Assembly: GCA_964437665.1 (NCBI GenBank)
Contig: CAYTHS010000004.1
Coordinates: forward strand, 1-58,736
DNA length: 58,736 bases
Source: an uncultured Oscillospiraceae bacterium
GTDB lineage: Bacteria > Bacillota > Clostridia > Christensenellales > CAG-138
Reading direction: 5' to 3'
Position 1 is the stretch's first letter. Each line of letters starts with the position of its first letter. The position numbers were made by a program, and so were the translations under genes. Positions 5,556-32,108 of the stretch are shown here, in pieces. Under the pieces are notes generated by a model. That model was not told the origin of the DNA, made no database searches, and saw only the letters and a program-made list of their open reading frames with translations.

Positions 5556-6039
5556 CGTTTTCCGCCTCCTCTCGTAAAAGTTCGGCGGCGTATTGAATCG
5601 CCTCGACGATCCGCGCGTAGCCGGTGCAGCGGCAGAGGTTACCGCTGATCGCCGTGCGGATTTCCTCCTCGGTGGGGTTTGGGTTTTGATTGAGCAGTGC
5701 CTTTGCTGTGAGGATCATTCCCGGCGTGCAGAAACCGCACTGGATTGCGCCGCACTCAACGAACGCGCGCTGCAGCGGATGCAGTTTGTTGCCGCGCGCG
5801 AGCCCTTCGATGGTCAGAATAGCGTGTCCGTCCGCCTTTTTGACGGGGACGATGCACGAGCGCACGGCTTCACCGTCCATCAGAACCGTACACGCGCCGC
5901 AGTCGCCGGTACCGCAGCCGCATTTTGCGCCGGTCAGGTCGAGATGATCGCGCAGTACGGAAAGCAGCGTTGCGTTGGGTTTTGCGTGTACAAGGTAGGT
6001 TCTGTTGTTGACTACCAGTCGGTAGGTTTCCGTTTCCAT
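5548..6039 (-). CDS. (2Fe-2S)-binding subunit of a xanthine dehydrogenase family enzyme
   Basis: GAKCGCGTGDCGAC, QCGFCTPG, GNLCRCTGY. Start refined to ATG at 6039. Confidence 0.92.
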   Translation of the reverse strand: METETYRLVVNNRTYLVHAKPNATLLSVLRDHLDLTGAKCGCGTGDCGACTVLMDGEAVRSCIVPVKKADGHAILTIEGLARGNKLHPLQRAFVECGAIQCGFCTPGMILTAKALLNQNPNPTEEEIRTAISGNLCRCTGYARIVEAIQYAAELLREEAENDD

Positions 6040-6058
6040 CGTTATTTGAAAAACTCCT

Positions 6059-7267: not shown

Positions 7268-7322
7268 AGAATCCTCCAGGTTATGCAGCTGCCTGCAAAT
7301 ATAGGACGCGCAGGCGGTTGCG

Positions 7323-9036: not shown

Positions 9037-9039
9037 GTG

Positions 9040-10761: not shown

Positions 10762-10766
10762 AACGC

Positions 10767-11777: not shown

Positions 11778-12080
11778 GGTACGGGTCCCTCCTTTATGCA
11801 AACGATGTCTTTTCTTTTTGCCGTTCCCCCTCAACGCCGAGGAGCCGGAGAACCGGAGTGCGGAAGAGTCGGGTTTATCGGGCCGGGGGCCTTTGTTTTC
11901 CGCTTTCCGGACGCCAAGCGGCAGAGAAAGCTGTTTGAATCGGCCGGCATGCCCGTGGGACGGGGAGGCCTCCCTGCGTTTTTGCGGGGAGCTGGTTCGA
12001 CGTGCTGAGAAGCTCTGCCGGACGGGGCTGGAAAAGTTGCTGTAAAACGGTCTTCCGATTCGGCGGAGATACCCGCGATA

Positions 12081-12545
12081 TCAAGGCTCGCGTTCCGCCG
12101 CGTCCAGCACGGCTTCGATCATTTGTTCGTAACCTGTGCAGCGGCATAGGTTACCTGAAATGGCCACCTTGACCTCCTCGCGCGACGGGTGCGGGTTTTT
12201 GTCCAACAGCGCCTTTGCGCTCATGAGGAAGCCCGGCGTACAGAAACCGCACTGCAGCGCATGGTGATCGAGCACGGCCTGCTGCAGCCGGTCGAGCCTT
12301 CCGTCGTGCGCGAGACCTTCGACCGTCGTGACGCTTTTGCCCATGACGCGCATGGCCGGCATGAGGCAGGAGACCACCGCGTCCCCGTCGACGATGACCG
12401 TGCATGCGCCGCATTCGCCCACGCCGCAGCCTTCCTTGGTACCGGTCAGGCCCAGCGAATCACGGATTACGTCCACGAGCCTCGCACTGTCCTCAACTTC
12501 GACGCAGACGGGTTGCCCGTTCAGTGTAAATTTCAGTTCGCTCAT
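12081..12545 (-). CDS. (2Fe-2S)-binding subunit (XdhC/CoxS-like)
   Basis: GTKEGCGVGECGAC, QCGFCTPG, GNLCRCTGY. Confidence 0.92.
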   Translation of the reverse strand: MSELKFTLNGQPVCVEVEDSARLVDVIRDSLGLTGTKEGCGVGECGACTVIVDGDAVVSCLMPAMRVMGKSVTTVEGLAHDGRLDRLQQAVLDHHALQCGFCTPGFLMSAKALLDKNPHPSREEVKVAISGNLCRCTGYEQMIEAVLDAAEREP

Positions 12546-13417
12546 GCTTCCTCCTCCGTAACGCCCGCAGCGATGCAAAGCGCGCGGCTGACAACCGCCG
12601 AAAGCGCGGGATACTTGTATTCGGTTGACCAGCGTACGCCGGTGATTTTTATCATTTCCTCCGAAACGGCCTTACCGCAGCGCTCAAAAAGCTTTTCCGA
12701 CGGAGCGCATCCGAGCAGGAGTTGTTCCGCAGAAGAAACCCGGCGCGGAGACGCGAACACGCAGCCGGGGGAGATGCGCGCGTCCGCGATTTTGCCGTTT
12801 TCGAACCGGAGCGCCACGGCGGCGTTTATTCGTGAGATGGCGAGCGCTTTCCGGCGGCCGAGCTTGACGAACACGGTGCGCCAGGCGGTCAGCGGCCTGA
12901 ATGCAAGCCGGACAAGCAATTCGTCGGGATGGATTGCGGTTTTGCCTGCGCCCGTTACGAATTCCGTAAGCGGCAGTTCGCGGGTACCGGAAACGCTTTG
13001 CAGCGTGACGCATGCGTCCAGAGCGGCGAGCGGTGAGAGCGTGTCCGCGGCGACAGCCGCGTTGCAGATGTTGCCGCCGATGGTTGCAACGTTACGTATC
13101 TGCTGCGCGCCGACGCTGAAGCAAGCCTGCGCGAGCATGTCCGCCGCCGCATGCACGAGCGGGGAGCGCGAAACGGCGTCATGCGTAGCCATGGAGCCGA
13201 TACGGACAAGTCCGTTTTCCTCTGAAATGTCGGTTAGTTCGTCGACGCGCGCCAGATCAAGCGCGAAATCCATGCCGGGGAACGCTTGCAATTCGTTGCG
13301 CAGTTCGATCATCAAATCCGTACCACCCGCGAGTGGACGGATATGTCCCGCATGTTCATGCATGGCCGCGAGCGCTTCACCGAGTGTTTTCGGAGAGAGG
13401 TATGAAAAGCGTTGCAT
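12542..13417 (-). CDS. FAD-binding subunit (XdhB/CoxM-like)
   Basis: PLAGGTDL, QIRNVATIGGNICNAAVAAD, KLGRRKALAIS. Start refined to ATG at 13417. Confidence 0.92.
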   Translation of the reverse strand: MQRFSYLSPKTLGEALAAMHEHAGHIRPLAGGTDLMIELRNELQAFPGMDFALDLARVDELTDISEENGLVRIGSMATHDAVSRSPLVHAAADMLAQACFSVGAQQIRNVATIGGNICNAAVAADTLSPLAALDACVTLQSVSGTRELPLTEFVTGAGKTAIHPDELLVRLAFRPLTAWRTVFVKLGRRKALAISRINAAVALRFENGKIADARISPGCVFASPRRVSSAEQLLLGCAPSEKLFERCGKAVSEEMIKITGVRWSTEYKYPALSAVVSRALCIAAGVTEEEA

Positions 13418-13434
13418 GTGAAAAAAAGCGCCTC

Positions 13435-15756
13435 CTACCATAGTTTTTTGCCGAGCAGCACGTTTTCGAGTCCCGCCGGATTGCAGCGCACGCGCCTTCC
13501 GGTCGCGTTGGCGACCGCATTGGCGACGGCGGCTGCCACGCACTCCATAGCGGGTTCGCCGACGCTCTTTGCGCCGTATGTGCCGCTGGGGTCGTCGCAC
13601 TCGAAGATATTAATCTTGATTTCCGGCATGTCCATAGCCGTCGGAATCAGGTATTCGTCGAGGTTTTGCGTTTTGACGAGACCGTTCTTCGTGACGACTT
13701 CCTCCATGGTGCCGTAGCCTTGCCCCATGAGCACGCCGCCGTAAATCTGCCCCTTGACCTGCGCGGGATTGATGGCCGTGCCCGCATCGTGGCTGCTGGT
13801 GACGCGCGCAACGCGCACTTCACCGGTTCCCGTGTCCACCTCGACTTCGGCGACCACACAGGCGTAGGAATATGTGGGGAACGCTTTGCCCTGCTGGGTA
13901 TCGTGGTCCTGTACGCAGGGCGGCGGCGTGAACCACTCGTAAGCGGAAAGGCACATGCCGCGCCAGAGGCCCGCACCCGCGACGTCCGCCAGGGAAATGC
14001 GGTAGCTTGGGTAGCCTGGGTCAAAAAAGAATCCGTCCCGCAAGATCAGATCGTCCGCCGATCGGTCGTGCCCGCAGCCGCCTTTTCCAGCGGTGAAATG
14101 GCCGAGGTCGACCGCGTTCTGCCTTAAAACCCGGTTGAGCTTGTCGCCCGCTTTTTTAACCGGCTGTGCGCCCATGACCGTTCCGCGCGAAGCGACGGTC
14201 ATACCGCTGTCCGGGATGCAGTGCGTGTCCGTGCCGTAAAATTGGACGCTTTCAAACGGTACGCCGAGCGCCTCCGCGGCGATTTGGCAGTAAACGGTCT
14301 TGAGCCCTTGCCCGTTTTCTGCAAGACCAGAGTGCAGCAAAACGGAGCCGTCCTCGTTGACGATGATAAACGCGCCCGCCGCGTCCGGAGATTCCGCGCC
14401 GTATCCGCAGCCGCGGTGAGATATTGCCATGCCGACGCCGCGGCGGTACCGGCCGGTCTGTTTTTGATAGCGCGCGTGCTTTGCCGCATAGTCCGTCTGT
14501 TTGGCCGTGTAGTCTATCATTTCCGGCAGAACGACATGCTCGACCGCCGAGCCGGTTGCTACGTGAGAACCGTTTCTGAGGCAGTTGACGCGGCGCATCT
14601 CCAGCGGGGTGAGGCCGGCTTCTTCGGCGAGCTCTTCGATGAACTGTTCCTGCGCATAGATCAACTCCGGGCTGGAGTAACCGCGAAACGCCCCGGAATG
14701 GATATTGTTGGTGAACACGCCGAAGGTTTCCGCTTCGACGTTCGGGATGTCGTACGCACCCGCGCAGTGCGCCGTTGCGCGCCAGTTCATGAACTGTGTC
14801 TGGTTGTTATAAGCGCCTGAATTGTCGATCTGCGAGGCTTTCCATGCGACAATGCGCCCGTCTTTTTTAAGTCCGGCTTTATAGGTGAACAGAAACGGAT
14901 GGCGTTTGCTGCTTTCGAGCAGCGATTCTTCGCGTGAAAAGACCATTTTGACCGGGCGGTGCAGCAGGCGGCAGAGGTATGCGCAGCGTGCCGCAAGCAA
15001 CCCCACACCTTCCTCTTTGCCTCCGAACGTGCCGCCGAGCGTTTCCTGAATCAGGCGCACGCGGTTGAAAGGGATTTGCAAAATATCCGCAATGTAGCGC
15101 CGCGTGAAAAATGGATTCTGCGAGGAGGAGTGAACGGTCATTTCTCCGTTAGAAGGATTTTCGACGGCGACCGCCGCCTCCGGTTCGATATAGGCGTGCT
15201 CAACATACTGAGTTTCGTAGGTGCGTTCGACAATCAGGTCGGCTTCCGCAAACCCTTGCTCCGCATCGCCCTTTTTCAGCGTGTAGCGGGATTGTGTGAA
15301 GATGTTACCCGGATATTCCTCGTGCACGAGCGGTGCGCCGGGCGCCATTGCTTCGCGCACGCCGAACACGGCGGGGAGTTCTTCGTATTCCACCCGGATA
15401 TGCTTTTTCGCCGCCTCGGCCTGTTCCTTTGTTTCGGCGGCGATTAGAGCGACCACGTCGCCGACGTAGCGGATACGGTCGGTCAGATAACGGTACGTGG
15501 CCCAACTCTTCGTTTTCGGCATTTCGGCAGCGGTGACGACTGCCAGCACGCCCGCCTGCTTACGCGCCTCAGACGCGTCGATCGAGAGAATGCGCGCACT
15601 GACCACGCCGTCGAGCCGGAGCATCGCGCCGTGCGCCATGTGTGGGTACGATACGTCCGCGGCATAGTTTGCGCGGCCCGTCACTTTGTCGGGACCGTCG
15701 ATGCGAGGCGCCGAATGATTGACGATATGGAACTGTTTTTTACCGTACAAAGGCAT
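13435..15756 (-). CDS. Xanthine dehydrogenase family molybdopterin-binding subunit (copy 1)
   Basis: KVTGRANYAAD, HAYIEPE, LGGTFGGK, AFRGYSSP, ENGQG, GAKSVGEP. Confidence 0.92.
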   Translation of the reverse strand: MPLYGKKQFHIVNHSAPRIDGPDKVTGRANYAADVSYPHMAHGAMLRLDGVVSARILSIDASEARKQAGVLAVVTAAEMPKTKSWATYRYLTDRIRYVGDVVALIAAETKEQAEAAKKHIRVEYEELPAVFGVREAMAPGAPLVHEEYPGNIFTQSRYTLKKGDAEQGFAEADLIVERTYETQYVEHAYIEPEAAVAVENPSNGEMTVHSSSQNPFFTRRYIADILQIPFNRVRLIQETLGGTFGGKEEGVGLLAARCAYLCRLLHRPVKMVFSREESLLESSKRHPFLFTYKAGLKKDGRIVAWKASQIDNSGAYNNQTQFMNWRATAHCAGAYDIPNVEAETFGVFTNNIHSGAFRGYSSPELIYAQEQFIEELAEEAGLTPLEMRRVNCLRNGSHVATGSAVEHVVLPEMIDYTAKQTDYAAKHARYQKQTGRYRRGVGMAISHRGCGYGAESPDAAGAFIIVNEDGSVLLHSGLAENGQGLKTVYCQIAAEALGVPFESVQFYGTDTHCIPDSGMTVASRGTVMGAQPVKKAGDKLNRVLRQNAVDLGHFTAGKGGCGHDRSADDLILRDGFFFDPGYPSYRISLADVAGAGLWRGMCLSAYEWFTPPPCVQDHDTQQGKAFPTYSYACVVAEVEVDTGTGEVRVARVTSSHDAGTAINPAQVKGQIYGGVLMGQGYGTMEEVVTKNGLVKTQNLDEYLIPTAMDMPEIKINIFECDDPSGTYGAKSVGEPAMECVAAAVANAVANATGRRVRCNPAGLENVLLGKKLW

Positions 15757-15814
15757 GAAATAACCACCTTTACCGAACTGGTGCTTGTGCAAAAGACCTG
15801 TATGCTATACACAG

Positions 15815-15945: not shown

Positions 15946-17325
15946 ATGGGGTATAACGATATGGCAAGAAACACGGTTTTCATCAAAGGCGCGCGCATGG
16001 CGGCGGAAAACGGCGGGGAACAGATCTGCAGCCTGTTGCTTGCGGACGGCAAGATTGCCGCCATAGGAACAGACGAAGCGCCGGAGGGTGCGGAAACGTT
16101 CGACGCGACGGGATTGGTCGCGCTGCCGGGCGCGGTGGATTCCCACGTGCATTTCTTTATGCAGGCGGCGAACGGGAAAAGGAATGCGGACGATTTTTAC
16201 GCCGGTTCGAAAGGCGCCGTCTGCGGCGGTACGACGAGCATTGTCGATTTTGCGAGTCCCGTTCCTGGCGGAAGCTGGACGGACGGCGTGAACACCCGCC
16301 GCGCGGAAGCGGACGGGAACGTGTTTTGCGACTACGGGCTGCATATGGAGGTCACGGGCGCGTTTGAACAGGATATTTCAAGACTCGGCGAACTGCTCGA
16401 CGCGGGCGTACGCGTATTGAAGATCTACACGACCTACGGCGCGGACCGTTATCCGCGTAAAAAACTGCACGCGCTGTTTGCCGAGGCAAAGCGTCTGGGG
16501 ATGCCGGTCCTGGCGCACTGCGAAGACGACGAAATCATCCAGAAAACGAAACGACGCATGTGCAGGGAAGGCCGGATTGCGGCGGCGCTGCACGGGGTCA
16601 GCCGTCCGGCGGCTGCGGAGATTGCCGCAGTGCAAGAACTGATTGCGCTTTCGGAACAGACGGGCGCGGAATTGATCGTCGCGCACGTTTCCGTGGGCGA
16701 AGCGGGACTGTTGATTGCCTCGGCGAGAAAGCGCGGCGTACCGGTCCATGCGGAAACCTGCCCGCACTACCTTCTGCTCGACGAAAACCGCTATGCGGGG
16801 AAAGAGCCGCAGCGCTGGATTATGACCCCGCCGCTGCGGTCGAAGCGCGACGGCGAAATTCTCTGGGGACTGCTCGAAAGCGGCGATATCGGTATGGTTT
16901 CCACCGACCACTGCCCGTTTGCGCTTGCGCAAAAGCTCGCTGAGCCGACGTGTTTCGGCGCGATTCCCGGTGTAGGCGGGTGTGAAAACATGGTGTCGCT
17001 GCTCTTTTCGGAAGGGTATCAAAAAGGCCGGCTCACGCTGTCACAGCTTTGCAGAAGGCTGTCGGGCGAAGCGGCGCGGCGGTACGGACTATCCCCGCAA
17101 AAGGGAGGACTTACCGCCGGTTCGGACGCGGACGTGGTGCTGATTGACCCCGGCGCGCCGCGGGTTCTGCGCGCGCAAAGCGAGCACGGCAACGCGGGAT
17201 ACTCTATTTGGGAGGGGTTTCCGGTCGGCTGTTCGGTGCGGTATGTATTTTTGCGCGGGGAGCTCGCCGCCAGGGACGGCGAACCAGCCGGTGTGGCGCG
17301 GGGTATGTTTTTGCACAAAAAATAA
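15946..17325 (+). CDS. hydA: Dihydropyrimidinase / D-hydantoinase family cyclic amidohydrolase
   Basis: PGAVDSHVHF, GGTTSIVDF, KIYTTY, AHCED, HVS, ETCPHYL, MTPPLRS, STDHCPF, PGVGG.E. Start is either 15946 or 15961. Confidence 0.88.
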   Translation: MGYNDMARNTVFIKGARMAAENGGEQICSLLLADGKIAAIGTDEAPEGAETFDATGLVALPGAVDSHVHFFMQAANGKRNADDFYAGSKGAVCGGTTSIVDFASPVPGGSWTDGVNTRRAEADGNVFCDYGLHMEVTGAFEQDISRLGELLDAGVRVLKIYTTYGADRYPRKKLHALFAEAKRLGMPVLAHCEDDEIIQKTKRRMCREGRIAAALHGVSRPAAAEIAAVQELIALSEQTGAELIVAHVSVGEAGLLIASARKRGVPVHAETCPHYLLLDENRYAGKEPQRWIMTPPLRSKRDGEILWGLLESGDIGMVSTDHCPFALAQKLAEPTCFGAIPGVGGCENMVSLLFSEGYQKGRLTLSQLCRRLSGEAARRYGLSPQKGGLTAGSDADVVLIDPGAPRVLRAQSEHGNAGYSIWEGFPVGCSVRYVFLRGELAARDGEPAGVARGMFLHKK

Positions 17326-17337: not shown

Positions 17338-17500
17338 GTGCACAGCCCCGGATTGAGATGGGACTGTACACCTAGAACCAATAAAATCAACGCGGGCCCA
17401 ACCCCCGCACTTCTCCCACGGGATTTTCCCTTGGGAGTTCCACAATGATACACTGGGTCCGAGGCGAGGGCTGAACGGTCCGCGGCGGGAGTCTGTGAAC
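17338..17500 (+). ncRNA. ssrS: 6S RNA-like rod-shaped RNA
   Basis: Nested pairings read by eye: cacag/ctgtg closing stem, ggactgt/acggtcc, an A-rich unpaired central strand (ACACCTAGAACCAATAAAATC), gggccca/tgggtcc, and a terminal hairpin ctcccacggga-ttt-tcccttgggag. The ACACCTnGAACCAATA...GGGCCCAAC segment resembles clostridial 6S RNAs as I recall them; not verified with a covariance model. Confidence 0.55.
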
Positions 17501-17531
17501 GTTGCATCAAAAGGGTCTTCGTTTGGTTGTG

Positions 17532-18680
17532 CTATGTGCTGAAACGTTCCGGCGAATAGGACTTTGCGTCTTCGGGAATCGTCCCCGTTTTCCAGTAGGA
17601 AGCGATCATATCCCCGATGGCGGGCGAGAGCGCGACCGCGCTGTGAAACGAATTCGCGATAAAGAGGTTGCCCGGCGAAGCGAACGCGCCGAAAACCGGC
17701 CGTTTATCTGGTGTGAAGGAAACAAGACCCGCCCACATACGGATGATTTCCAAGTCGGAAAGCGACGGGAAGAGACGGAGTACGCGGCGGGCAACGGCGC
17801 GCGGCCCCTCGAACGTGTTTGATTTGTCATAGCCGTCCGGTCGTGTGGTGGCCTGCGCCATGACGATGTTGCCGGAGGATGTCTGTGAAAGGCACGCGCC
17901 AACGACCATCGGGTTTTCTTCAGGCGGCTGGTTAAAAAGCGCGCCGTCGGTAATCATGCGCCGGATATGCGGAGCCGTCGGCATGCTTACCATCGCTTCA
18001 CCGCGTTCGTAGCAAACGGGCGTGTCGCGCCCGGCCATCCGGGCCAGATCGCGTGTCCAGGCTCCGCCTGCGAGTACGAACAGATCGGCTTTCACGCCGC
18101 CATCCGGCGTTTCGAGCGCGGAAACGAGCCCGTTATCCAGATGCAGGCCGGTCACGGGCGTATGCGGGCGCAGGCTTGCGCCGAGCTGCTTTGCGCGCGC
18201 GGCCATATGGAGGTTGAGCTTGAACGGGTTGACCCGTCCTTCGCCGGGACACCAGCATGCGCCGACGACCTGTCTTTCATCGAGCGCCGGTTCGAGTTCC
18301 TTTGCGCGTTTTGCGGAGACGAGGCCGATATCGTCCAGCCCGAGCGTCTTTGCGTGGCGGCACAGCCTCTCAAGCACAGCCGCCTGCGCATGGCTCGTCA
18401 GCGGGATGAGACCGCCGGACGGGACGTATTCCACATCGCCGATTTTTGCCTGTAACGCGTCCCAGTTTTGCTGCTGCTCGAGCGCGAGCGACATGCAAAG
18501 CCTGTCCTCTCGGTAACTGAGTACGCAGAATCCGGGATTGGTGCACGAAGCGCCCGCGCAGAGATCGTCCTTTTCGAGAAGGACGACGCGTGCGCCCGCC
18601 GCCGAGAGTTTCCAAGCCGCGGCTGCGCCGATTACGCCGCCGCCGACGATTGCAACGTCGAAATGCCGGTCTTTTTGCAT
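17532..18680 (-). CDS. FAD-dependent oxidoreductase, DAO family (sarcosine oxidase beta / HcnC / proline dehydrogenase beta-like)
   Basis: IVGGGVIG Rossmann motif, GASCTN.G, EGRVNPFKL, IIRMWAGL...TPDKRPVFG, C-terminal ALSPAIG. Confidence 0.85.
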   Translation of the reverse strand: MQKDRHFDVAIVGGGVIGAAAAWKLSAAGARVVLLEKDDLCAGASCTNPGFCVLSYREDRLCMSLALEQQQNWDALQAKIGDVEYVPSGGLIPLTSHAQAAVLERLCRHAKTLGLDDIGLVSAKRAKELEPALDERQVVGACWCPGEGRVNPFKLNLHMAARAKQLGASLRPHTPVTGLHLDNGLVSALETPDGGVKADLFVLAGGAWTRDLARMAGRDTPVCYERGEAMVSMPTAPHIRRMITDGALFNQPPEENPMVVGACLSQTSSGNIVMAQATTRPDGYDKSNTFEGPRAVARRVLRLFPSLSDLEIIRMWAGLVSFTPDKRPVFGAFASPGNLFIANSFHSAVALSPAIGDMIASYWKTGTIPEDAKSYSPERFST

Positions 18681-18691: not shown

Positions 18692-19660
18692 TCAAAGCGT
18701 GTTGAAAAAGTAGCTTTTCAGCAGCATGTCCGCGTCGGTCTGTCCTGCAAAAAACGTTCTGCCGGTCTTTTGATTGGTTAATTCGATGCGCGCGACCTTG
18801 TGTACGTTCGTATCCATCTTGAAGATGTCGCGCCCTGCGGCGTCATAGAGTTCGGCGAACGTTTTGCCGTTGTGCTCCGTGCCGGAAAACACCATGTGCG
18901 GCAGGACGCGCTCGATTTCTTCGTCCCTGCAGTATACGACATATTTTGCGACTGAGCCGTAGAGCGTGGAGGAATTGACGCGGTCCATTGCGATTAACTC
19001 GTCTTCGATTACCGGCGGAATTGCCGCGCTGCCCGAGAAGGACTTCACCTTTTCGAGCGGAAAACCGTTGTAGCCGAGTCCCCAGAGCGAGACCTCTGCC
19101 ATCCGCGCGGCGATCTGCACACATCCCACGAGACTGCCGGTTTTCGCCGCGAGCAGGTACACGTTTTCCGGCTTGACGCCGCAGGCCTGCGCCACCTCGT
19201 CCGCGACGGACTCGTCCGGAAGCGCGGCGGTCTGCAGTGCGAGGGCGGTTTTTTCAAATTTATCGTGGTACGGCCACATCTTTGCGATTCCGTCGTGGTA
19301 TGCGATTGCGCGCGCGGGGCCGGAGCCGAAGCCGGGCAGCTTGTACGCGCCGGAAGGCTTGATCTTCCAGGCGGAAAACTGGGAGGAAAGCGCCGCCTCC
19401 TGCGGATGGTCCAGCCGGATCTCGACGCTCTCGAGTTCGCGGGCGCCGACGTGGATTTTGCCGAATGCAACTTCACCGAGCGCACCGAGCGTGACCAGCG
19501 TGAACAGCCGTGCGGCCTCCCAGCCACCGGGAGCGTGAACGCCCATGTCGATTATGTTCGTTCCGTTTTTCAGCGTGTGTCGTTCGCATCCAAGCTCCCA
19601 AAGGCGCGGCAGAATCCGCTCCTCAATGAGCCGGCAGGTGTTTTGACTCAGACTAAGCAT
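18692..19660 (-). CDS. mch: Methenyltetrahydromethanopterin cyclohydrolase homologue (Mch-1)
   Basis: IIDMGV.APGGWEAA, ALSSQFSAW, GSGPARAIA, P....VA..CGV.PENVYLL.A.TGSLVG.VQIAARMAE, G.A.IPPV, AM.R.N...LYG. 322 aa, matching Mch size. Confidence 0.85.
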   Translation of the reverse strand: MLSLSQNTCRLIEERILPRLWELGCERHTLKNGTNIIDMGVHAPGGWEAARLFTLVTLGALGEVAFGKIHVGARELESVEIRLDHPQEAALSSQFSAWKIKPSGAYKLPGFGSGPARAIAYHDGIAKMWPYHDKFEKTALALQTAALPDESVADEVAQACGVKPENVYLLAAKTGSLVGCVQIAARMAEVSLWGLGYNGFPLEKVKSFSGSAAIPPVIEDELIAMDRVNSSTLYGSVAKYVVYCRDEEIERVLPHMVFSGTEHNGKTFAELYDAAGRDIFKMDTNVHKVARIELTNQKTGRTFFAGQTDADMLLKSYFFNTL

Positions 19661-20966
19661 GTAATTCCTCCATTATTCGGGTCAATACCGCAAAAAACTC
19701 TGCGTGAACGGCCGATTCGTCGAAACCGGTCACAACGCCTTCATGCAGCACAGGCCTGCCTCCGACGTATACGTCCCGCACGTCGCCGGAACGCGTGCAG
19801 TAGACCAGCGTTGAAATTATGTCCCCTGTGCCGAAGCCGAGGTGAGCCTTTTGCAACGGCACGATCGAAAAGTCTGCCGGCAGGCCTTTTTCGAGTACGC
19901 CGGAATCGAGCGAGAGCATCCGTGCGCCGCCTGCGGTCGCCATGCGGAATACGTCCTTTGCCGTTACGGCGGTCGGGTCCTGACACGCCGCCTTTTGCAG
20001 CATCGCCCCGAAACGCATCTCTTCGAACAGGTCGAGCCGGTCGTTGGAAGCCGGTCCGTCGGTCGCAAGCGCGATGTTGACCCCGGCACGCATCAACGCG
20101 GGGACCGGACAAATGCCGCTGCCTAGTTTTGCGTTGCTCTTTGGGTTGTAGACGAGCGTTATGCCGCGCTCGGCCGCGAGCTCGATTTCCCGCGGGGTCA
20201 TATGCACGCCGTGCACCGCGGAAAAACGCGGCGAAAGCAGGCCGAGGCGGTCGAGATAACAAAGCTCCGGTTCGCCCTTCTCGGCGACGCACTGGCGCGC
20301 TTCCGCGGCGGTTTCGTCAACATGTGTCTGCACGCGCGAGCTGTAGTTTTTTGCGAGCGCGGCGATGGAGCGCATTGCGGATTCGCTGGTCAGGTTCGGC
20401 TCGGACGGGGTCAGCACGCACTTTTCCGGATATGTCCCGAGCAACCGTTCGATCTCCGCAAGATCGCGCTTCAACCCCATGGGCGTGCTCATGAAAAGGT
20501 CGGCCAGTTCGATGCCGGCATAGCCGTGAACGCCGGCCTGCGCCGCAGCACGGAATATGCCGTCCTGCGCGTAGTTGACGTCCATGTCGAGAAAAGCCGT
20601 CACGCCGCTTCTGAGCATTTCCGCGATGCCGCACGCCGCCCACAGGTACGAAAACCGTTCGCGTTCCGGCTTCGGGATTTTCCCGTAAAGCGCGGCGACC
20701 ATCGGGCCGAGCACCTCACCGCACCAGCCGCTCAGCGGCAGGTCGTCCCGCCGCCCGACCAGCAGCATTTGGTACAGGTGCGTATGTGCGTTGACAAAGC
20801 CCGGCAGCACGGCGCAGCCCGCGCAGTCGATTTGCTCCGCGCCGCTCGGTACGGGCAGACGTGCGCCGACGCTTCGGATCCGTCCTTCTGCAACGAGCAT
20901 GTCCACGTTTTGCAAAACGTCGTCCGCGTTTACAACTAGATATGAAATGTTCTGAAAAACACGCAT
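19653..20966 (-). CDS. Amidohydrolase, MTA/SAH deaminase (MtaD)/AtzA-like
   Basis: PGFVNAHTHL, HVDET (HxxE), AVHGVH, NPKSNAKLGSG, LATDGPASN. Start refined to ATG at 20966. Confidence 0.88.
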   Translation of the reverse strand: MRVFQNISYLVVNADDVLQNVDMLVAEGRIRSVGARLPVPSGAEQIDCAGCAVLPGFVNAHTHLYQMLLVGRRDDLPLSGWCGEVLGPMVAALYGKIPKPERERFSYLWAACGIAEMLRSGVTAFLDMDVNYAQDGIFRAAAQAGVHGYAGIELADLFMSTPMGLKRDLAEIERLLGTYPEKCVLTPSEPNLTSESAMRSIAALAKNYSSRVQTHVDETAAEARQCVAEKGEPELCYLDRLGLLSPRFSAVHGVHMTPREIELAAERGITLVYNPKSNAKLGSGICPVPALMRAGVNIALATDGPASNDRLDLFEEMRFGAMLQKAACQDPTAVTAKDVFRMATAGGARMLSLDSGVLEKGLPADFSIVPLQKAHLGFGTGDIISTLVYCTRSGDVRDVYVGGRPVLHEGVVTGFDESAVHAEFFAVLTRIMEELHA

Positions 20967-21016
20967 GTCAAACAAGTCCTTTGATACTTGCGTTCGCAAA
21001 ACCGCGGTCCGGGCGG

Positions 21017-21934
21017 TCAGGAGAACGTCTTTTTGTCCCGACGCATGCGGCGGCGGGAATACATGCTTGCAGCGATCAGCGCGCCGAGAAACGGCAGCAT
21101 CTGCACCACGCGCGCGGGGAAGCCGCTCGTCGCCTGCAGGATGTCGCCCAGCGCGGAGAGCGCGCCGAGCGCCCAGGCGGAAAACAGCACTGTATAGGGG
21201 TTGCTTTGGGCGAGGATGACGACCGCCATGGCCAGCCACCCGCGCCCATTGGTCATGCCGGTGAATCCGCCCACAAAGATTCCCTGGTTCAGCGAAAGCG
21301 AAGCGCCGGCTAGTCCGCAGAGCAAGCCGCAGAGCGCGTAGGAAGCATAAATCATCCCCGCCACGGGAATGCCGCGCGCGGAAGCAACCCATTCGCTGAT
21401 GCCGACCGCGCGGAGACGCCGCCCGAATGCGGTTTTAAAGATCACCGCGTAGAGCACGGCTACGAGGACGATCGCCAGATAGTCCAGCAAGGTATGGTTG
21501 CTGAGCACCTGATTGACATAGGGGATGCTTTCAATCAGCGGTGTGGCGAGCTTGACGAGGCGCGGCGCATAAGGATAGATGATCGAACCCTGCGAGCTGG
21601 TGAGCACGAAGATCAGAAACGTGGTTAGTCCGGTGCCGAGGATGTTGACAGCCATGCCGGCGATGTAGATGTCCACGCCGAGGCGGATGCTCATAAACGC
21701 CATCAGAAGCCCGACGGCGACGGTGACGCTTATACCCATCAGAAGACCGAGCAAAAGGCTGTTCCAGAGGTTGGCAAAATAGAGCGAAAAGAAAGCGGAG
21801 AAGAGCATCATGCCTTCCATGCCGAGATTGAAACGGCCGGACAGCCCGGTCATCATACCGCCGAGCGAGCAGAGTATCAGCGGCGTGCCATAGGCGATCA
21901 TCGTGTAGAGGAATCCCGAAACAAACTCGTTCAT
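21017..21934 (-). CDS. Nucleoside-type ABC transporter permease
   Basis: PLILCSLGG...SGRFNLGMEG, T.FGRRLRAVG, GRGWLAMAVVI. Confidence 0.9.
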   Translation of the reverse strand: MNEFVSGFLYTMIAYGTPLILCSLGGMMTGLSGRFNLGMEGMMLFSAFFSLYFANLWNSLLLGLLMGISVTVAVGLLMAFMSIRLGVDIYIAGMAVNILGTGLTTFLIFVLTSSQGSIIYPYAPRLVKLATPLIESIPYVNQVLSNHTLLDYLAIVLVAVLYAVIFKTAFGRRLRAVGISEWVASARGIPVAGMIYASYALCGLLCGLAGASLSLNQGIFVGGFTGMTNGRGWLAMAVVILAQSNPYTVLFSAWALGALSALGDILQATSGFPARVVQMLPFLGALIAASMYSRRRMRRDKKTFS

Positions 21935-22989
21935 GCGCCGGCCGCCTCCTTTTTACGGGTTTTTCCGCGCCGATGTGAACCGGTCAAAAATTCGATGAGC
22001 CGTTCGCTGGTCACGAGCAGCAGGATCGCGCCCTGGATGATCTGGGAAACGTCCGGCGTGATGTCCGCAAACAGCGCCGCGCACTCCGCACCCTTGGTCA
22101 GGTATGCAAAAAACAGCGATACAGGCAAGACGAGCAGCGGATGATTGCGGCTGATCATCGCAATGGAAAGGCCGCTCCATCCGATTCCGCAGAGCTGGTT
22201 GCGCACCCGAAACGACGTGCAGAGCACGTACGTCATGCCGCCTACGCCGCTTAGGCCGCCGGAAAGCAACATTGCAAAGCCCGCGACCGCCGCGGTGCTT
22301 ACGCCGCCGTAGCGCGCAAACACAGGATTCTGGCCCGTCATGCGGATTTCATAGCCGATACGCGAGCGCCGCAACGCAAAGTAGATGACGGCCGCGAGCG
22401 CGAGTGCAAGGAACAGCGTTGTATTCAGGTCGGAAGGGGAAAGGATTTTTGCAAAGCGGAACGCCTCCGGTACGGCCTGCGTCGTCACGCCCTGATCGGA
22501 ATTCATGTCGCGCAGGGGCCCTTCCACCAGCATGAAGACGAGATAGAATACCACATTGGCGAGCATCAGAGAGGACATCATCACGTCCAGGTCGAACCTG
22601 CGCTTTAGGAAGTTGCAAACTGCCGCGAGCAGCGCGCCGCCCGCGAATGCCGCAACGAACATCAGCGGAACCGCCGCCGCGGCCGGCCAGCCCTCCATCG
22701 CTACAGCCGCCATTGTACCTGCGAGCATACCAAAGTATACCATGCCTTCGAGTCCGAGGTTCCAAACCGAGGCCGTGAACGAAACGCTTGCGGCCAGACC
22801 GCAGATGATCAGCGGCACGGCGGTGTTGAGCATGTCGCCGAAAAAGTATGCGCTTGAAAACGGGCCAACGAAGAAATACCGGAGAGCGGCGGCCGGTTCG
22901 TCGCTGCAGAGCAGGATAACCACAAGCGCCATGACCAGCCCCGAAAGGATTACCAGCAGTTCAAACAGCGTACGTTTCGCCTGTTTCAT
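21931..22989 (-). CDS. Nucleoside-type ABC transporter permease
   Basis: WNLGLEGM, IGYEIRMTGQNP.FARYGG, G.GWSGLSIAMI.RNHP. Confidence 0.9.
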   Translation of the reverse strand: MKQAKRTLFELLVILSGLVMALVVILLCSDEPAAALRYFFVGPFSSAYFFGDMLNTAVPLIICGLAASVSFTASVWNLGLEGMVYFGMLAGTMAAVAMEGWPAAAAVPLMFVAAFAGGALLAAVCNFLKRRFDLDVMMSSLMLANVVFYLVFMLVEGPLRDMNSDQGVTTQAVPEAFRFAKILSPSDLNTTLFLALALAAVIYFALRRSRIGYEIRMTGQNPVFARYGGVSTAAVAGFAMLLSGGLSGVGGMTYVLCTSFRVRNQLCGIGWSGLSIAMISRNHPLLVLPVSLFFAYLTKGAECAALFADITPDVSQIIQGAILLLVTSERLIEFLTGSHRRGKTRKKEAAGA

Positions 22990-24542
22990 GCATGCGCCCC
23001 CTTTTCGTTCGTGGGCTGCATGCGCCGGATGCCAAGCATATATTCACCGATTTCCTCGCGACTGAGCGACGCGCCGTTTTGCAGGTTGGCGGTGATTTCT
23101 CCGCCGCGCATGACGAGCACGCGGTCTGAGAGTTCCAAAATTTCGTTGATATTGCTCGAAACGAGCAGGATAGCCATGCCCCGCTCGCGCAAAAAAAGCA
23201 TTTCGTCGTGAATATAGCGTGCCGAGAGCACGTCCAGCCCCATCGTGACCTCCGCGGCGAGCAGCAGCTTCGGCTTGGCCGAGAGTTCGCGCGCGAGGAT
23301 GGTCCGTTGGATGTGCCCGCCGGAGAGCCCGCCAACGACGCGCCGTCCGTCCGAAACCTTGATATTGTAGCGGCTTACAAGCTCGTCTGTGAGCGCATTG
23401 AGCGGTTTTGCGCGCAGCAGGCCGTGCCTGCAGTACGGTGCTTTGTTCCGCCGGTCAATCAGCAGATTTTCCGAAACGGAAGCGCTCGCGCAGGAGCCTA
23501 CGTGGATGCGGTCCTCGGGGATGTAACTGACGCCGGCGTTTCGCCGTGCGCTGGGCGAAAGCCGCGCGACGCTTTCGCCGCAGAGCAGGATTTCACCGCC
23601 GCTTGCTTCCCGGAGGCCGAAGAGCGCCTCGAGCAGTTCCTGCTGGCCGTTGCCGTTGACGCCCGCGACGCCGACGATTTCGCCTGCACGGATGCGGAAG
23701 CTTGCGTTTTTCACCATGTCGAGCGGACCGTTTTTTACGGTAAGGTTTTGCACACGCAGTACGCATGCGCCCGCATCAAGCGGCCCCCGCGTCTCTTCGG
23801 GCGCGAGTGCCTGCCCGACCATGAGGCGCACCGTCTCCGCGGCGTCGAGGTCTTCGGTCGGTCCGGTGAATACCGCCTCGCCGTCGCGCAGAACGGTCAC
23901 TTCGTCGGTGACGTCGAGCACCTCCTCGACCTTGTGACTGATATAGACGATGGTTTTTCCGGCGGCCTTCAGCATCCGAATGGTGTCTAATAATCCCCTG
24001 ACTTCCTGTTCGACCAGCACGGAGGTGGGTTCGTCGAAGACGAGCAACTCCGCCCTGCCGTTGAGCACGCGCATGATCTCGACCTTCTGCCTTTCACCCA
24101 TCGAGAGCGTGCCGACTTTCCGGTCGAGTTCGATGGAGAAGCCGCATTGCTCCGCAGCGGCCGCGGCGGCCTTTTTTGCGGCCTTTTCGTCCACAAAACC
24201 GAACGCTTTGACCGGTTCCATACCGAGTACGACGTTTTCGACGACTGTGTATTCGTCCAGCAGCGAAAAGTGCTGATGCACCATGCCAACGCCGTGTTTT
24301 GCCGCGGCAAGCGCATTTTTGATGCGTACGGGCTCGCCGCAGAGCAGGATTTTACCCGTGTCCATATGCTCTACGCCCGAAAGAATTTTCATGAGCGTGG
24401 ACTTGCCCGCGCCGTTTTCGCCGAGCAGACCGTGTACCGTGCCTTTCTTCACGCAGAAGTCCACGCCCTTGAGCGCGTGCACCTCGCGGCTGAACGAACG
24501 GTATGTTTTTGTGATGCCAAGCATCTGCAGATAGTCCGGCAT
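22986..24542 (-). CDS. Nucleoside/sugar ABC transporter double ATPase (NupA-like)
   Basis: GENGAGKSTLM, GMVHQHF, DEPTSVL, YIPEDR, LSGGHIQR. Confidence 0.92.
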   Translation of the reverse strand: MPDYLQMLGITKTYRSFSREVHALKGVDFCVKKGTVHGLLGENGAGKSTLMKILSGVEHMDTGKILLCGEPVRIKNALAAAKHGVGMVHQHFSLLDEYTVVENVVLGMEPVKAFGFVDEKAAKKAAAAAAEQCGFSIELDRKVGTLSMGERQKVEIMRVLNGRAELLVFDEPTSVLVEQEVRGLLDTIRMLKAAGKTIVYISHKVEEVLDVTDEVTVLRDGEAVFTGPTEDLDAAETVRLMVGQALAPEETRGPLDAGACVLRVQNLTVKNGPLDMVKNASFRIRAGEIVGVAGVNGNGQQELLEALFGLREASGGEILLCGESVARLSPSARRNAGVSYIPEDRIHVGSCASASVSENLLIDRRNKAPYCRHGLLRAKPLNALTDELVSRYNIKVSDGRRVVGGLSGGHIQRTILARELSAKPKLLLAAEVTMGLDVLSARYIHDEMLFLRERGMAILLVSSNINEILELSDRVLVMRGGEITANLQNGASLSREEIGEYMLGIRRMQPTNEKGAHA

Positions 24543-24585
24543 GAGAACAGTTCCTTTCCGCTGGCCTGCGCGGGATGAACGGCGT

Positions 24586-25695
24586 CTATTCGTCGATCGG
24601 CGCGCGCGGGTCTATCGTTCCGTCGATCAGCCCCTGATAAGCGGCCTGCATCTTTTCGAGAATGTCCCCCGGGACCTTCTCCTGCGTGACGGGGTCGTCG
24701 AACGTAAACGAAATCACGCCCTCGGCGGCGCCGACGGTACGGCCCGTGCCGTATGCAAGCGTGCCGGTCACCGCGCCGTATGCCGCGTCGTATGCCGCCT
24801 GATAGCCCTGCACGAGCGTACAGCCGACGATTGTGTCCGGTGAGAGCGATATGGCGTTGTTGTCGTTCGCCACGGCGTATTTATTCTGTGTTTCGGCTTC
24901 GGTCACGCATCCGTAGGCGGAGGCGCCGGTGGTATAGTACACGACGTCAGCGCCCTGCGCGAACAGCGCGCGCGTAACGTCCGCGCCCTTCTGCGGGTCC
25001 ACCCAGTCGCCAATAATCGAATTGAGGACTGTGATATTCTCACCGGCGGCCATCACGCCGTTGGTAAAGCCGGTTTTGACGTCCACCTCCCAGGCGTCGT
25101 ACACGTCCGTAAACACGAGGCCGACGACAAGGTCGGCATTAGCGCGTTCCATATCGCTCTGTGTGATCAGTCCGCAAAAGTATCCGCCGAGGTAACCGAG
25201 CTGGTAGAGGTCGAAAGACACGCCCCATACCGTGGACGGGATAACGCCGCCGTCGAACTGGCTTTGATACCCGATCAGGTCGGCGTCGATAAGCACAAAC
25301 TTCTGATCAGGATAGGATTTGAGTGTTTCTTTGACGCAGTAACGCATCACGTCCGTCGTGGTAAAAATCACGTCATAAACACCCGCCTCCGCGAGGCTCG
25401 TCAGATATTTACCGTAAGCCGTCCACTGGTCGCCGCCTTCGACCACCTTCGGTTCGGGTGCGCCGAGGTCCGAACAGGCCGTGCGGATGCCGTCTGCGAT
25501 CATTTGGAAAATTGCATTTTCACCTTCGATGCCGGGTAGCATCAGCGCGGTTTTGAAATCTTCGTAGGCGCTTCCGCCGGAGCTTTCGGAGGTTTCGTCC
25601 GAGGCCCCGTCCGCGGAGGGCGCGGCTTCTCCGCAGGCGGCGGCAAAGAGCAGCAGCAGACAGAGCAGAATGGCGAGGATTGCTTTGCGTTTCAT
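24586..25695 (-). CDS. BMP family ABC substrate-binding lipoprotein
   Basis: Lipobox AAACG, GYLGGYF.G, F.NGV, GADVVY...GAS..G. Start refined to ATG at 25695. Confidence 0.85.
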   Translation of the reverse strand: MKRKAILAILLCLLLLFAAACGEAAPSADGASDETSESSGGSAYEDFKTALMLPGIEGENAIFQMIADGIRTACSDLGAPEPKVVEGGDQWTAYGKYLTSLAEAGVYDVIFTTTDVMRYCVKETLKSYPDQKFVLIDADLIGYQSQFDGGVIPSTVWGVSFDLYQLGYLGGYFCGLITQSDMERANADLVVGLVFTDVYDAWEVDVKTGFTNGVMAAGENITVLNSIIGDWVDPQKGADVTRALFAQGADVVYYTTGASAYGCVTEAETQNKYAVANDNNAISLSPDTIVGCTLVQGYQAAYDAAYGAVTGTLAYGTGRTVGAAEGVISFTFDDPVTQEKVPGDILEKMQAAYQGLIDGTIDPRAPIDE

Positions 25696-25727
25696 GTCCG
25701 GATTCCTCCTTAATGATGTTTTGGGCG

Positions 25728-26675
25728 TTATACGAGCAGTTCGGGGTACAGGGAACCTGCGCGGAACGCCTTGCCGCACGCCGGATCGAAGACTTCAGCT
25801 ACGGCGAGCTTGTTGATATGCTGCAGGTTCGGGATTTTGAAAAAATCGCCGCCCGCCTGATCGAGCAGGTCGGAAAAGTACGCACCAAAGATATCCGCCG
25901 ACTCAAACGCGAGTTTTTTTGCAAGCTTCTCCGGGTCGAGACCGGAGGTTTCGTTCAATGTGAGGCGGGAAAACGCGCCATAGTGCAGAAAATCGTCAGG
26001 AAGCAGCGCTTTTCCGCTCTTTGTTTTTGCGCCGGGAGGGCAGACGGGGGCATAACCTGCGACGTACGAAACACAAGACGCGTCAATCCCGAGAGAACGT
26101 TCCATGGTAAAGATCATATTCTCGTTCATGCGGCCCGCGATCTGCGCCGCACCGAGCGTGCTGTCCTGTGCGGCTACGAGCAGGGTCAGTTTCTCCGGCG
26201 AACAGCCGGCGGCGTCCGCCAACAAAGAAACCCAGCGGTCATCCGGCGTTTCGTCCGCCTGCACGAGCGCGCACAGACTGCCGCCGGACGGGTCGCTTGG
26301 ATCGCCGATTTCTTCCGTGTGCTCCAGGTGCAGTTTGAGCGGACCGGAGATCATATGACCGGAAAACGAGTGCGCGGACTGCAGTGCGAGCGCCGCAAGA
26401 CGCGGATATGCGGTTTCGGAGCGGACAAACGGGTACGTCCGGTCACACAACGGCGCGGAGTATGCCCGCGTTTCGGCCAGCCCGCCTTGGCAAAGCGCCG
26501 CAGCCAGCGCGCCGGCGGCCGTGCTGCCGGGCGTCTCGTTTTCCACGGTTATCAGCAAAGCGCCGCAGTGCGCACGGCTGGTGACGAGTCCGTATGCGCC
26601 GGCGTTTTGCGTTAGTTCGCCGATCAGCGCTGCACAGTTCGATCCGATTTTGCCGAGGGTCGGTTTTTCGCGCAT
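25728..26675 (-). CDS. Divergent methenyl-H4MPT cyclohydrolase homologue (Mch-2)
   Basis: GS..AG...A..CQGGL, P.LAAL..Q, SGP, P....LA...GC.PE.L.LLVA...S..G.AQIAGRMNE, G.APVCP, LHYG. 315 aa. Alignable by eye to Mch-1. Confidence 0.65.
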   Translation of the reverse strand: MREKPTLGKIGSNCAALIGELTQNAGAYGLVTSRAHCGALLITVENETPGSTAAGALAAALCQGGLAETRAYSAPLCDRTYPFVRSETAYPRLAALALQSAHSFSGHMISGPLKLHLEHTEEIGDPSDPSGGSLCALVQADETPDDRWVSLLADAAGCSPEKLTLLVAAQDSTLGAAQIAGRMNENMIFTMERSLGIDASCVSYVAGYAPVCPPGAKTKSGKALLPDDFLHYGAFSRLTLNETSGLDPEKLAKKLAFESADIFGAYFSDLLDQAGGDFFKIPNLQHINKLAVAEVFDPACGKAFRAGSLYPELLV

Positions 26676-29244: not shown

Positions 29245-29330
29245 ATTTGCCACCTCCGGTTCGGGGAATTGTCCGTTTCCCGTTTTGCTTTCCGGGAAAG
29301 GAAGGGGAAAAGGAACTTGTTTATCCTTTT

Positions 29331-30722: not shown

Positions 30723-30731
30723 GACGGCGCG

Positions 30732-32021: not shown

Positions 32022-32108
32022 TTTTTGCCCTCCCTGGGCGCGTATTTGTACTCGCGATGAAAAAAACGGGCCGAGGATGCGTTTCATCGCTGCCAAACGA
32101 CCGCCTTT

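Follow-up and report, generated by a model that had tools for sequence, protein, structure and literature searches.

Methenyl-tetrahydromethanopterin (methenyl-H4MPT) cyclohydrolase (Mch, EC 3.5.4.27) is treated, together with Ftr and Fhc, as a marker of methanogenesis, methanotrophy, and methylotrophy, and annotation pipelines name every homolog "methenyltetrahydromethanopterin cyclohydrolase." Addition of water to an N-CH=N carbon to yield a formamide is also the chemistry of the GTP cyclohydrolases, IMP cyclohydrolase, and FolD, whose folds are unrelated to Mch and which are mostly metal-dependent. We know of no ring-opening cyclohydrolase of this kind that acts catabolically within clusters such as the one described here. 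We analyzed a contig of 58,736 nucleotides (CAYTHS010000004.1 of assembly GCA_964437665.1; hereafter the window) from an uncultured Oscillospiraceae bacterium, with emphasis on the gene for an Mch-fold cyclohydrolase, Mch-1 (18692–19660, minus strand; 322 residues from an ATG start). The reading that we favor, and to which we give an even chance, is that Mch-1 is an active Mch-fold enzyme recruited from one-carbon (C1) metabolism into an uptake-linked degradation of N-heterocycles. Judged from the sequence data, it would most likely open a different nitrogen ring, in a pathway that has no description in the searchable literature. The reading rests on the fold, the catalytic residues, a separate clade, a lost signature, conserved neighbors, the missing genes for synthesis of H4MPT and methanofuran, and a linked Fhc module.

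The closest described systems each share part of this picture. Haloferax, which is without methanopterin, has an Mch homolog, HVO_2573, for which a role with methenyl-tetrahydrofolate has been proposed (PMC8305020). This is a precedent for the change of ligand that we posit for Mch-1. However, HVO_2573 is a single housekeeping gene, whereas carriers of Mch-1 have FolD, multiplied paralogs, and importer/catabolic operons. The reductive uric-acid (2,8-dioxopurine) pathway comprises XdhD, YgfK or clostridial UacX, SsnA, HyuA, YgeW/UacY, YgeY, and YgeX; neither of the papers that describe it mentions Mch, Ftr, or Fhc (PMC12507026; bioRxiv 10.1101/2025.04.24.650524). Homologs of XdhD, UacX, SsnA, HyuA, and YgeY lie in the gene runs of the two mch genes of the window. 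The YgeY homolog scores above its family cut-off (427 versus 321 bits), whereas those of SsnA (263 versus 444) and HyuA (368 versus 393) fall below theirs. The window goes beyond the uric-acid pathway in having two Mch proteins, a TRZ-type deaminase, a three-component amine dehydrogenase, a complex resembling pyruvate dehydrogenase (PDH), and Fhc. Our literature searches turned up no account in which a bacterial Mch-like enzyme belongs to a catabolic cluster. The Fhc part resembles methylotroph FhcABCD and archaeal Ftr plus Fwd: FhcD scores above its equivalog cut-off and, in common with the H4MPT clusters of Proteobacteria, there are FhcA- and FhcC-like proteins and a ligase of the RimK type. 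It differs in its short FhcB-like gene, in having neither MfnB nor H4MPT genes, and in its purine-type catabolic neighbors. Finally, Mch-1 has in common with characterized Mch (1QLM, 4GVQ/4GVR/4GVS, and 4FIO) the whole-length fold, the Gln93 segment, Arg183, Glu186, and the GSGP loop, but it falls in a separate clade, has all ten signature positions changed (see below), and comes from a host without genes for H4MPT or methanofuran synthesis. Mch-1 is coupled to a deaminase and a DAO-family flavoprotein in a catabolic cluster, whereas the Azospirillum mch sits among the genes for Mtd, Fae, and RFAP synthase.

Residues 3–317 of Mch-1 cover positions 1–311 of the Pfam MCH profile (PF02289; 292.4 bits, E = 5e-87). 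The protein passes the NCBIfam equivalog TIGR03120 marginally (237.9 bits against a cut-off of 228.8). Since this cut-off admits Mch-1 by 9 bits, the name "methenyltetrahydromethanopterin cyclohydrolase" is probably spreading wrongly. Public records carry it for Mch-1 and for its homologs that we list as P0005, P0016, P0022, P0033, and P0040, among others. The whole-length matches in the PDB are the enzymes from M. kandleri (1QLM, 197 bits) and A. fulgidus (4GVQ, 167 bits), and sequence identity to solved Mch proteins is 30–37%. An AlphaFold2 model of Mch-1 built from 58 sequences (pLDDT 95.8, pTM 0.94) matched Mch structures only when compared with the PDB in Foldseek, with TM scores of 0.90–0.92 (1QLM 0.92, 4GVQ 0.91) and, for the matches at 0.91–0.92, root-mean-square deviations of 2.2–2.6 Å.

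The catalytic set of A. fulgidus Mch reportedly consists of the segment 93–95, Arg183, and Glu186, an assignment attributed to Upadhyay et al. in 2012. The counterparts in Mch-1 are Gln94-Phe95-Ser96 (QFS in place of QKA), Arg186, and Glu189. An earlier reading of the window made from the sequence alone (the sequence-only reading) had noted a Q-I-x-A-R-x-x-E segment carrying the catalytic Arg and Glu, and the alignment bears this out: VQIAARMAE lies opposite SVQISGRIVE of the A. fulgidus enzyme, with R186/E189 equivalent to R183/E186. The Gln, Arg, and Glu are 100% invariant across every clade compared, so that addition of water to an amidinium carbon is very likely retained; the GSGP loop is also kept in Mch-1. 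The catalytic competence proposed from the sequence is thus consistent with the preserved Gln94, Arg186, Glu189, and GSGP loop and with a confidently predicted Mch fold.

Outside the catalytic set the protein has diverged. Two deviations pointed out earlier are real: LALQT replaces the usual L-E (E140 to Q), and MDRVNSSTLYGS stands in place of MGRTND..LYGG. To describe the divergence we used a signature of ten positions at which 22 H4MPT-type sequences of archaeal and proteobacterial origin show little or no variation. In A. fulgidus numbering these are E140, F280, S251, P250, T225, D227, C56, P170, K191, and A95, or EFSPTDCPKA. The 22 sequences read EFSPTDCPKA or are one or two positions off, and E140 and F280 occur in 22 of 22. 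Mch-1 reads QHFVVSTKGS and keeps none of the ten, the replacements including E140Q and F280H. Nine of the ten replaced positions are fixed or nearly fixed among its orthologs; P250 varies (A/V/T). In the wider bacterial radiation (n = 109), position 140 is Gln in 107 sequences, and Phe280 is found in none (His in 77, Asp in 16, Asn in 14, and a gap in 2). The changed ligand pocket that the sequence-only reading had suggested gains indirect support from the loss of all ten H4MPT-type positions. If the reading that we favor is right, E140/F280 as opposed to Gln140 with His, Asp, or Asn would be a simple rule separating H4MPT-type Mch from a second class.

The phylogeny also sets Mch-1 apart. A maximum-likelihood tree (84 sequences, LG+G4) was built from seven methanogen Mch proteins, that of A. 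fulgidus, three from proteobacterial H4MPT clusters, and bacterial homologs. Methylotroph isolates (e.g., Methylobacterium), Planctomycetes, and haloarchaea lie outside the tree, the sequences from proteobacterial H4MPT clusters standing in for methylotrophs. Support is 100/100 for the archaeal group and likewise for the clade of proteobacterial H4MPT-cluster sequences; both are separate from Mch-1, which falls within a clade of 27 sequences from anaerobic bacteria (ultrafast bootstrap 99, SH-aLRT 97). Union of the Mch-1 orthologs with canonical Mch was rejected by the approximately unbiased test (delta lnL 119, p = 0.0003), with the group defined after inspection of the tree. Grouping with ordinary Mch had been named as an outcome that would undo the original proposal; the support for the anaerobe clade (99/97) and the result of the test place Mch-1 elsewhere. 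The second gene of the window, Mch-2 (25728–26675, minus strand), encodes a divergent paralog (PF02289, 123 bits) that fails the TIGR03120 cut-off at 118.5 bits. It belongs to a long-branch clade of 14 sequences; the protein keeps the Gln, Arg, and Glu and has Lys for R113.

Genes for the cofactors themselves were sought in the host and in other carriers. RFAP synthase is the committed enzyme of methanopterin synthesis, and MfnB is needed for the furan of methanofuran. Searches of 28 Mch-bearing genomes gave no RFAP synthase (0 of 7 and 0 of 21), while archaeal control genomes were positive; the archaeal metagenome-assembled genome (MAG) G571, intended as a positive control, likewise yielded no RFAP synthase, and the named control genomes were used instead. 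MfnB was not found in any of the eight Fhc-bearing bacterial genomes. Azospirillum has a textbook H4MPT cluster (fhcCDAB, RFAP synthase, mtdB, orf5, mch, rimK, orf9, and fae). When this entire cluster was compared with the host genome by tblastn, matches were confined to FhcD (51% identity), FhcA, FhcC, the RimK ligase, and the two Mch proteins, and MtdB, Fae, orf5, orf9, and FhcB were not found. The host genome (2.96 Mb in 221 contigs, 92% complete) contains exactly two MCH genes, both in the window. FolD is present in all 17 Mch-bearing genomes tested, including the host, so no housekeeping folate cyclohydrolase is missing.

These data bear on the simplest alternative, namely that Mch-1 is an ordinary methenyl-H4MPT cyclohydrolase that has been relocated and that acts on self-made H4MPT as part of a formaldehyde/formate module. 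A TIGR03120 score just over the cut-off and the presence of FhcD, FhcA, and FhcC would fit this explanation. Against it stand the position of Mch-1 outside the canonical clades, a signature with none of the canonical residues, and the failure to find RFAP synthase, MtdB, Fae, orf5/orf9, or MfnB in the genomes searched. Mch is also missing from each of eight genomes of the host genus and, in a class-wide sample, from all 398 other genomes that were scored; within the bacterial family it is carried by 7 of 151. The conventional methylotrophy module that would have marked Mch-1 as a standard gene was not found in the host genome (RFAP synthase, MtdB, Fae, and MfnB). Given these negatives and the patchy occurrence of Ftr, a canonical H4MPT role for Mch-1 is very unlikely, and we regard the relocated-gene explanation as largely refuted and barely credible.

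The part of the H4MPT machinery that is present forms an Fhc-like operon at the start of the window. It consists of an FhcA/FwdA-like amidohydrolase that is cut by the contig end (3–1352, plus strand; TIGR03121, 337 bits versus a cut-off of 393), an FhcC-like protein (1288–2094, plus strand; TIGR03122, 93 versus 131 bits), and a RimK/MptN-like glutamate ligase (2025–2945, plus strand; MptN, 226 bits). The 5′ end of fhcA that is missing from the window lies at the end of another contig of the assembly (C82:1–2149). That contig also carries fhcD (C82:1019–2149; TIGR03119, 358 bits versus 293) and, beside it at the contig end, a short, barely recognizable FhcB-like gene (26 bits). In one relative (L021) the genes run without interruption as FhcD, B-like, A, C, RimK, and in three further cases (L022, L024, and L071) FhcD is located just outside the locus. 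Because this order is contiguous in complete relatives, where it abuts the matching cluster, contig C82 very probably joins the start of the window. In at least seven genomes the Fhc-like operon adjoins purine-type catabolic genes, in varied gene order. Among 78 loci, Fhc/Ftr genes lie inside the locus only in Christensenellaceae-type loci and two archaeal loci, and Ftr/FhcD was not found in 14 of 21 Mch-bearing genomes. Given the presence of this operon in the super-cluster, a pterin-type formyl carrier might be in use.

The immediate context of Mch-1 is catabolic. Its ATG (19660–19658) and the TAG of the upstream amidohydrolase gene (19655–19653) overlap with eight nucleotides shared, as had been described; the junction reads ...GGAGGAATTAC ATG CTT AG..., with a GGAGGA ribosome-binding site before the ATG. 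Downstream, the 11-bp gap also holds: the TGA (18694–18692) is followed by the spacer cgggggtgagc and then by the ATG of the DAO-family gene at 18680. In a biogas-fermenter metatranscriptome (one RNA run), short contigs with zero mismatches fall in Mch-1 (19040–19195) and in the DAO gene (17469–17788 and 17932–18154). This is weak evidence that the two genes are transcribed, and carry-over of DNA is also possible.

A scan of species-representative genomes gave 78 Mch loci from seven bacterial phyla. Most carriers are MAGs, of Christensenellaceae, Oscillospiraceae, other Clostridia, Anaerolineae/Chloroflexi, Acidimicrobiia, Spirochaetes, Fusobacteria, and Acidobacteriota. The isolates are Moorella naiadis AZ13.I, Pseudoflavonifractor sp. 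524-17, and Pseudoflavonifractor sp. HCP28S3_F10. The source metagenomes of carriers are methanogenic habitats (sludge, wastewater, and biogas). Within 10 kb of Mch, the 78 loci contain a TRZ amidohydrolase in 47, a BMP-family ATP-binding cassette (ABC) importer in 45, a DAO gene in 40, a SoxA-like gene in 23, and an E1/E2 pair in 17; in 17 loci the E1/E2 genes directly adjoin other Mch paralogs. Other recurrent neighbors are CE4 deacetylase-family proteins (21 loci), Fer2_4 (16), Mer-like F420-type luciferase-like monooxygenases (LLM; 13), MeTr-like pterin-binding proteins (11), and RibU-like S components of energy-coupling factor (ECF) transporters (8). In orthologous loci (66–85% identity to Mch-1) that reach both neighbors, the order amidohydrolase, Mch-1, DAO is kept in 14 of 14. 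Most of these 14 also keep the SsnA, UacX, Mch-2, and BMP ABC genes upstream, and a HyuA-like gene next to the DAO gene is conserved. The sequence-only reading had taken deaminase, cyclohydrolase, and amine oxidoreductase for consecutive steps. Functional coupling of the three is supported by this gene order and by their association across phyla; the reactions need not follow the literal order of the genes.

Two genomes of the host's family show paralog expansion, with about nine Mch copies in one (G015, the Bacillota MAG JBCFAY01; L004–L011) and about six in the other (G007; L012–L015). The copies are full-length and 30–45% identical to one another, and each lies beside a different BMP ABC importer, E1/E2/E3, XDH, or DAO/ECF set. 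A shorter (~215–280 residues), strongly degenerate Mch-like open reading frame (ORF; L008:10445–11170, L010:10405–11133, L085:10977–11624, and L098:10950–11795) lies immediately after the full-length gene in one subclade of Mch, and its product could be a hetero-oligomeric partner. An apparent DAO-MCH fusion (P0012) was rejected as a natural fusion, being a frameshifted read-through. A 5-kb contig binned as Methanothrix sp. (L059, RPOO01000226.1) has the bacterial-type arrangement of DAO, Mch, and ABC genes. It is probably a mis-binned Anaerolineae contig, hinting at close co-occurrence with Methanothrix.

In the window, Mch-1 belongs to a long minus-strand gene run (34072 to 17532) that encodes, in order, the PDH-like complex, SsnA-like, UacX/PydA-like, Mch-2, BMP ABC importer, TRZ/ATZ amidohydrolase, Mch-1, and DAO proteins. 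The amidohydrolase (19653–20966, minus strand; 437 residues) is of the TRZ/ATZ (cog0402) deaminase type (Amidohydro_1, 192 bits). Its best NCBIfam match is 5′-deoxyadenosine deaminase, under the cut-off at 275 bits, and its closest solved relatives are the methylthioadenosine/S-adenosylhomocysteine deaminase 4f0r (best, 200 bits) and 8-oxoguanine deaminases. The ORF listed for this gene (19653–21392) has a spurious Arg-rich N-terminal extension of 142 residues that overlaps the permease gene, and homology begins at the ATG at 20966. Over-long ORFs also affect SsnA (27910–29388) and other genes in this GC-rich window. The DAO-family flavoprotein (17532–18680, minus strand; PF01266, 209 bits) is of the β-type of amine dehydrogenase subunit, with the β subunit of P. 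horikoshii L-proline dehydrogenase (1y56_B, 127 bits) as its best PDB match. Its probable partners in a three-component amine dehydrogenase are encoded on the plus strand (35352–36723). They are a Fer2_4 2Fe-2S protein (~35352–35648), located by tblastn with a Chloroflexi Fer2_4 protein that matches 35352–35603, and a flavoprotein of 361 residues resembling the N-terminal part of SoxA (35638–36723; TIGR01372, 152 bits).

The BMP-family importer (21017–25779, minus strand; Pfam Bmp, 99 bits) comprises two permeases, an ATPase, and a binding protein. The last has its best match in TpN38(b) of T. pallidum, which binds riboflavin (4iil, 100.8 bits); PnrA-type proteins, which bind nucleosides, score far lower. 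The UacX/PydA-like reductase (26709–27917, minus strand) combines DHO_dh and Fer4 domains (PreA, 149 bits) and is followed in the upstream direction by the SsnA-like amidohydrolase (27910–29388, minus strand). The PDH-like 2-oxoacid dehydrogenase complex (29331–34072, minus strand; E3, E2, E1-β, and E1-α by Pfam) contains the first genes of the run; its E1-α reaches 326 bits against the PDH model, under the cut-off. Beyond the run lie the HyuA/dihydropyrimidinase-like hydantoinase (15946–17325, plus strand; TIGR02033) and, on the minus strand, two molybdenum (Mo) hydroxylases of the xanthine dehydrogenase (XDH) family (3276–6105 and 12081–15792; Pfam and NCBIfam), the YgeY hydrolase (6059–7567; NF009555), a PfkB ribokinase-like kinase (7323–8219), and an ECF transporter (T, A, and S; 8221–11834) with RibU-like S components, the last two assigned from Pfam/NCBIfam. 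A 347-residue ORF between E1-α and the Fer2_4/SoxA-like pair (34166–35209, plus strand) has no Pfam or NCBIfam match, and a homolog of 50% identity is found at the equivalent place in genome G007 (L015:3204–3749). A 1573-residue ORF (38122–42843, plus strand) lies downstream of the cluster.

YgeX is the terminal diaminopropionate ammonia-lyase of the uric-acid route. No match to TIGR01747 over the cut-off was obtained in nine of nine genomes, three of which are complete chromosomes. The cluster is therefore related to the reductive uric-acid pathway but is not a copy of it, and we rejected a simple copy of the 2,8-dioxopurine pathway.

We propose the following role, each step of which is conditional. 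Glu189, tuned by Arg186 and acting with the Gln94 segment, would activate water as in Mch. The water would add to the electrophilic N-CH=N carbon (a cyclic amidine or amidinium) of the compound being degraded and not to a C1 unit on H4MPT. That compound would have a ring of the purine or pteridine type and would either enter the cell through the BMP/ECF transporters or arise from the action of the neighboring deaminase, Mo hydroxylases, or UacX-type reductase. Its opening would give an N-formyl amine of the 5-formamidopyrimidine type. A 5-formamidopyrimidine derived from the imidazole ring of a purine would be a close mimic of N5-formyl-H4MPT, which would explain the recruitment of Ftr/Fhc beside Mch. 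In the host genome the co-located Fhc-like complex (FhcD/A/C) might then remove the formyl group as formate, and in the Chloroflexi, which lack Fhc, the CE4-family deacylase beside the cluster could do so. Loss of an exocyclic amino group would be the task of the coupled cog0402 amidohydrolase, and the remaining (pyrimidine) ring would be dismantled through the deaminase, the Mo hydroxylases, and a reductive route of the UacX/SsnA/HyuA/YgeY type. The DAO/SoxA-like/Fer2_4 dehydrogenase and the PDH-like complex may oxidize the amino-acid end product, replacing YgeX. As to the class of substrate, a purine-derived compound is a tentative candidate and a pteridine- or flavin-like one a somewhat less likely one; another kind of compound is slightly more probable than the former. 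Ring opening of creatinine, ectoine, histidine-type compounds, lumazine/diacetyl, and IMP-type compounds was considered for specific substrates, and the evidence prefers none. The substrates put forward in the sequence-only reading (m7G and reduced purines) are guesses.

Several observations weigh against the recruitment that we favor. The substrate of Mch-1 is not deducible from sequence. The ten signature positions need not line the ligand site, and W97, N226, F261, D271, and R113 are common to Mch-1 and true Mch; with so many residues shared, the pocket for the head group may differ little. Support for monophyly of the entire bacterial radiation is weak (31/62), and the failure to find YgeX in the nine genomes also counts on this side. 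FhcD is much more canonical than Mch-1 (358 bits for a cut-off of 293, and 51% identity to Azospirillum FhcD), and together with the MptN/RimK-like ligase it hints that a real formyl carrier of the pterin or furan type may be in use. Moreover, the Mch homolog of Chloroflexi and Acidimicrobiia travels with Mer-like and MeTr-like pterin-binding proteins, which looks like a pterin C1 route. In two Chloroflexi loci (L046:12373–17262 and L052:12470–17316), Mer-like LLM and MeTr-like genes lie within ~5 kb of Mch in a convergent operon with DAO and Fer2_4 genes; this operon has a SoxA-like gene in L052 but not in L046. In an acidimicrobial locus (L037:9157–11978), Mch and a Mer-like gene immediately 3′ of it share a strand. 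All three loci also have a CE4 deacetylase-family gene nearby.

Mer-like and MeTr-like neighbors of this kind would suit a scavenged cofactor. Under that explanation Mch-1 acts on a C1-loaded tetrahydropterin (methenyl- or formyl-H4MPT or -sarcinapterin, or folate) imported from methanogen-rich surroundings or from food. The pterin would then lose its C1 unit and be broken down, or the MptN-like ligase would retain it as a borrowed C1 carrier for use with Fhc. RFAP synthase and MfnB were not found, yet the cluster encodes FhcA/C, an MptN-like ligase, and an FhcD of canonical appearance. Both importers look like binders of riboflavin or pteridines, with 4iil the match of the BMP binding protein and RibU-like S components in the ECF transporter. 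Pterins are among the substrates of enzymes of the cog0402 deaminase and XDH types. The methanogenic habitats of all sources, and the binning of one carrier contig with Methanothrix, point the same way. However, the change of all ten H4MPT-type positions in Mch-1 is unexpected if the ligand is still H4MPT, Ftr is missing from 14 of 21 carrier genomes, and methylene-H4MPT dehydrogenase was not found in the host genome by tblastn. Up to nine divergent paralogs per genome are also hard to explain with one cofactor. We consider this explanation unlikely, if by no means negligible. A more elaborate form, which we rate as distinctly less probable, extends it to anaerobes living beside methanogens (Christensenellaceae-type Clostridia, Anaerolineae, and others). 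These would import C1-loaded methanopterin or sarcinapterin, and perhaps methanofuran, and would remove the C1 unit, as formate or reducing power, by means of Mch, Ftr/Fhc, Mer-like, and MptN-like enzymes gained through horizontal transfer and then re-tuned. The pterin would be kept as a borrowed cofactor or burnt via the deaminase, the Mo hydroxylase, and reductive ring cleavage. If true, this would be the first case in which scavenged cofactors link bacteria to methanogens.

The same neighbors, and the proposed role of Haloferax HVO_2573 (PMC8305020), could instead indicate endogenous folate, with Mch-1 a methenyl-tetrahydrofolate (or 5-formyl-tetrahydrofolate) cyclohydrolase for C1 units released in the pathway by DAO-type N-demethylation or from a formimino group. 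Enzymes of the DAO/SoxA type often hand C1 units to folate. Yet the SoxA-like subunit, at 361 residues, is without the folate-binding C-terminal half, and the cluster holds an H4MPT-type Fhc operon and not Fhs. Paralog expansion and tight pairing with a deaminase and an importer are unexpected for a housekeeping C1 step, and FolD occurs in 17 of 17 carrier genomes tested. A housekeeping folate cyclohydrolase was rejected on this last ground, and the folate explanation as a whole seems to us improbable.

What the reading that we favor would mean reaches beyond this one bacterium. Names taken from C1 metabolism sit here on genes of bacteria that lack the synthesis of either cofactor, in conserved import-and-breakdown clusters spread over seven phyla and found in digesters, guts, and sediments. 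If the reading is true, the substrate of an entire Mch branch has yet to be described, and calls of "H4MPT C1 metabolism" made from such genes in metagenomes are wrong. The cultured carriers (Moorella naiadis AZ13.I and the two Pseudoflavonifractor strains) make the question directly testable. If true, the cluster would also represent an undescribed anaerobic opening of purine- or pterin-type rings with release of formate, complementing the uric-acid pathways described in 2023–2025 that are relevant to the disposal of urate in the gut.

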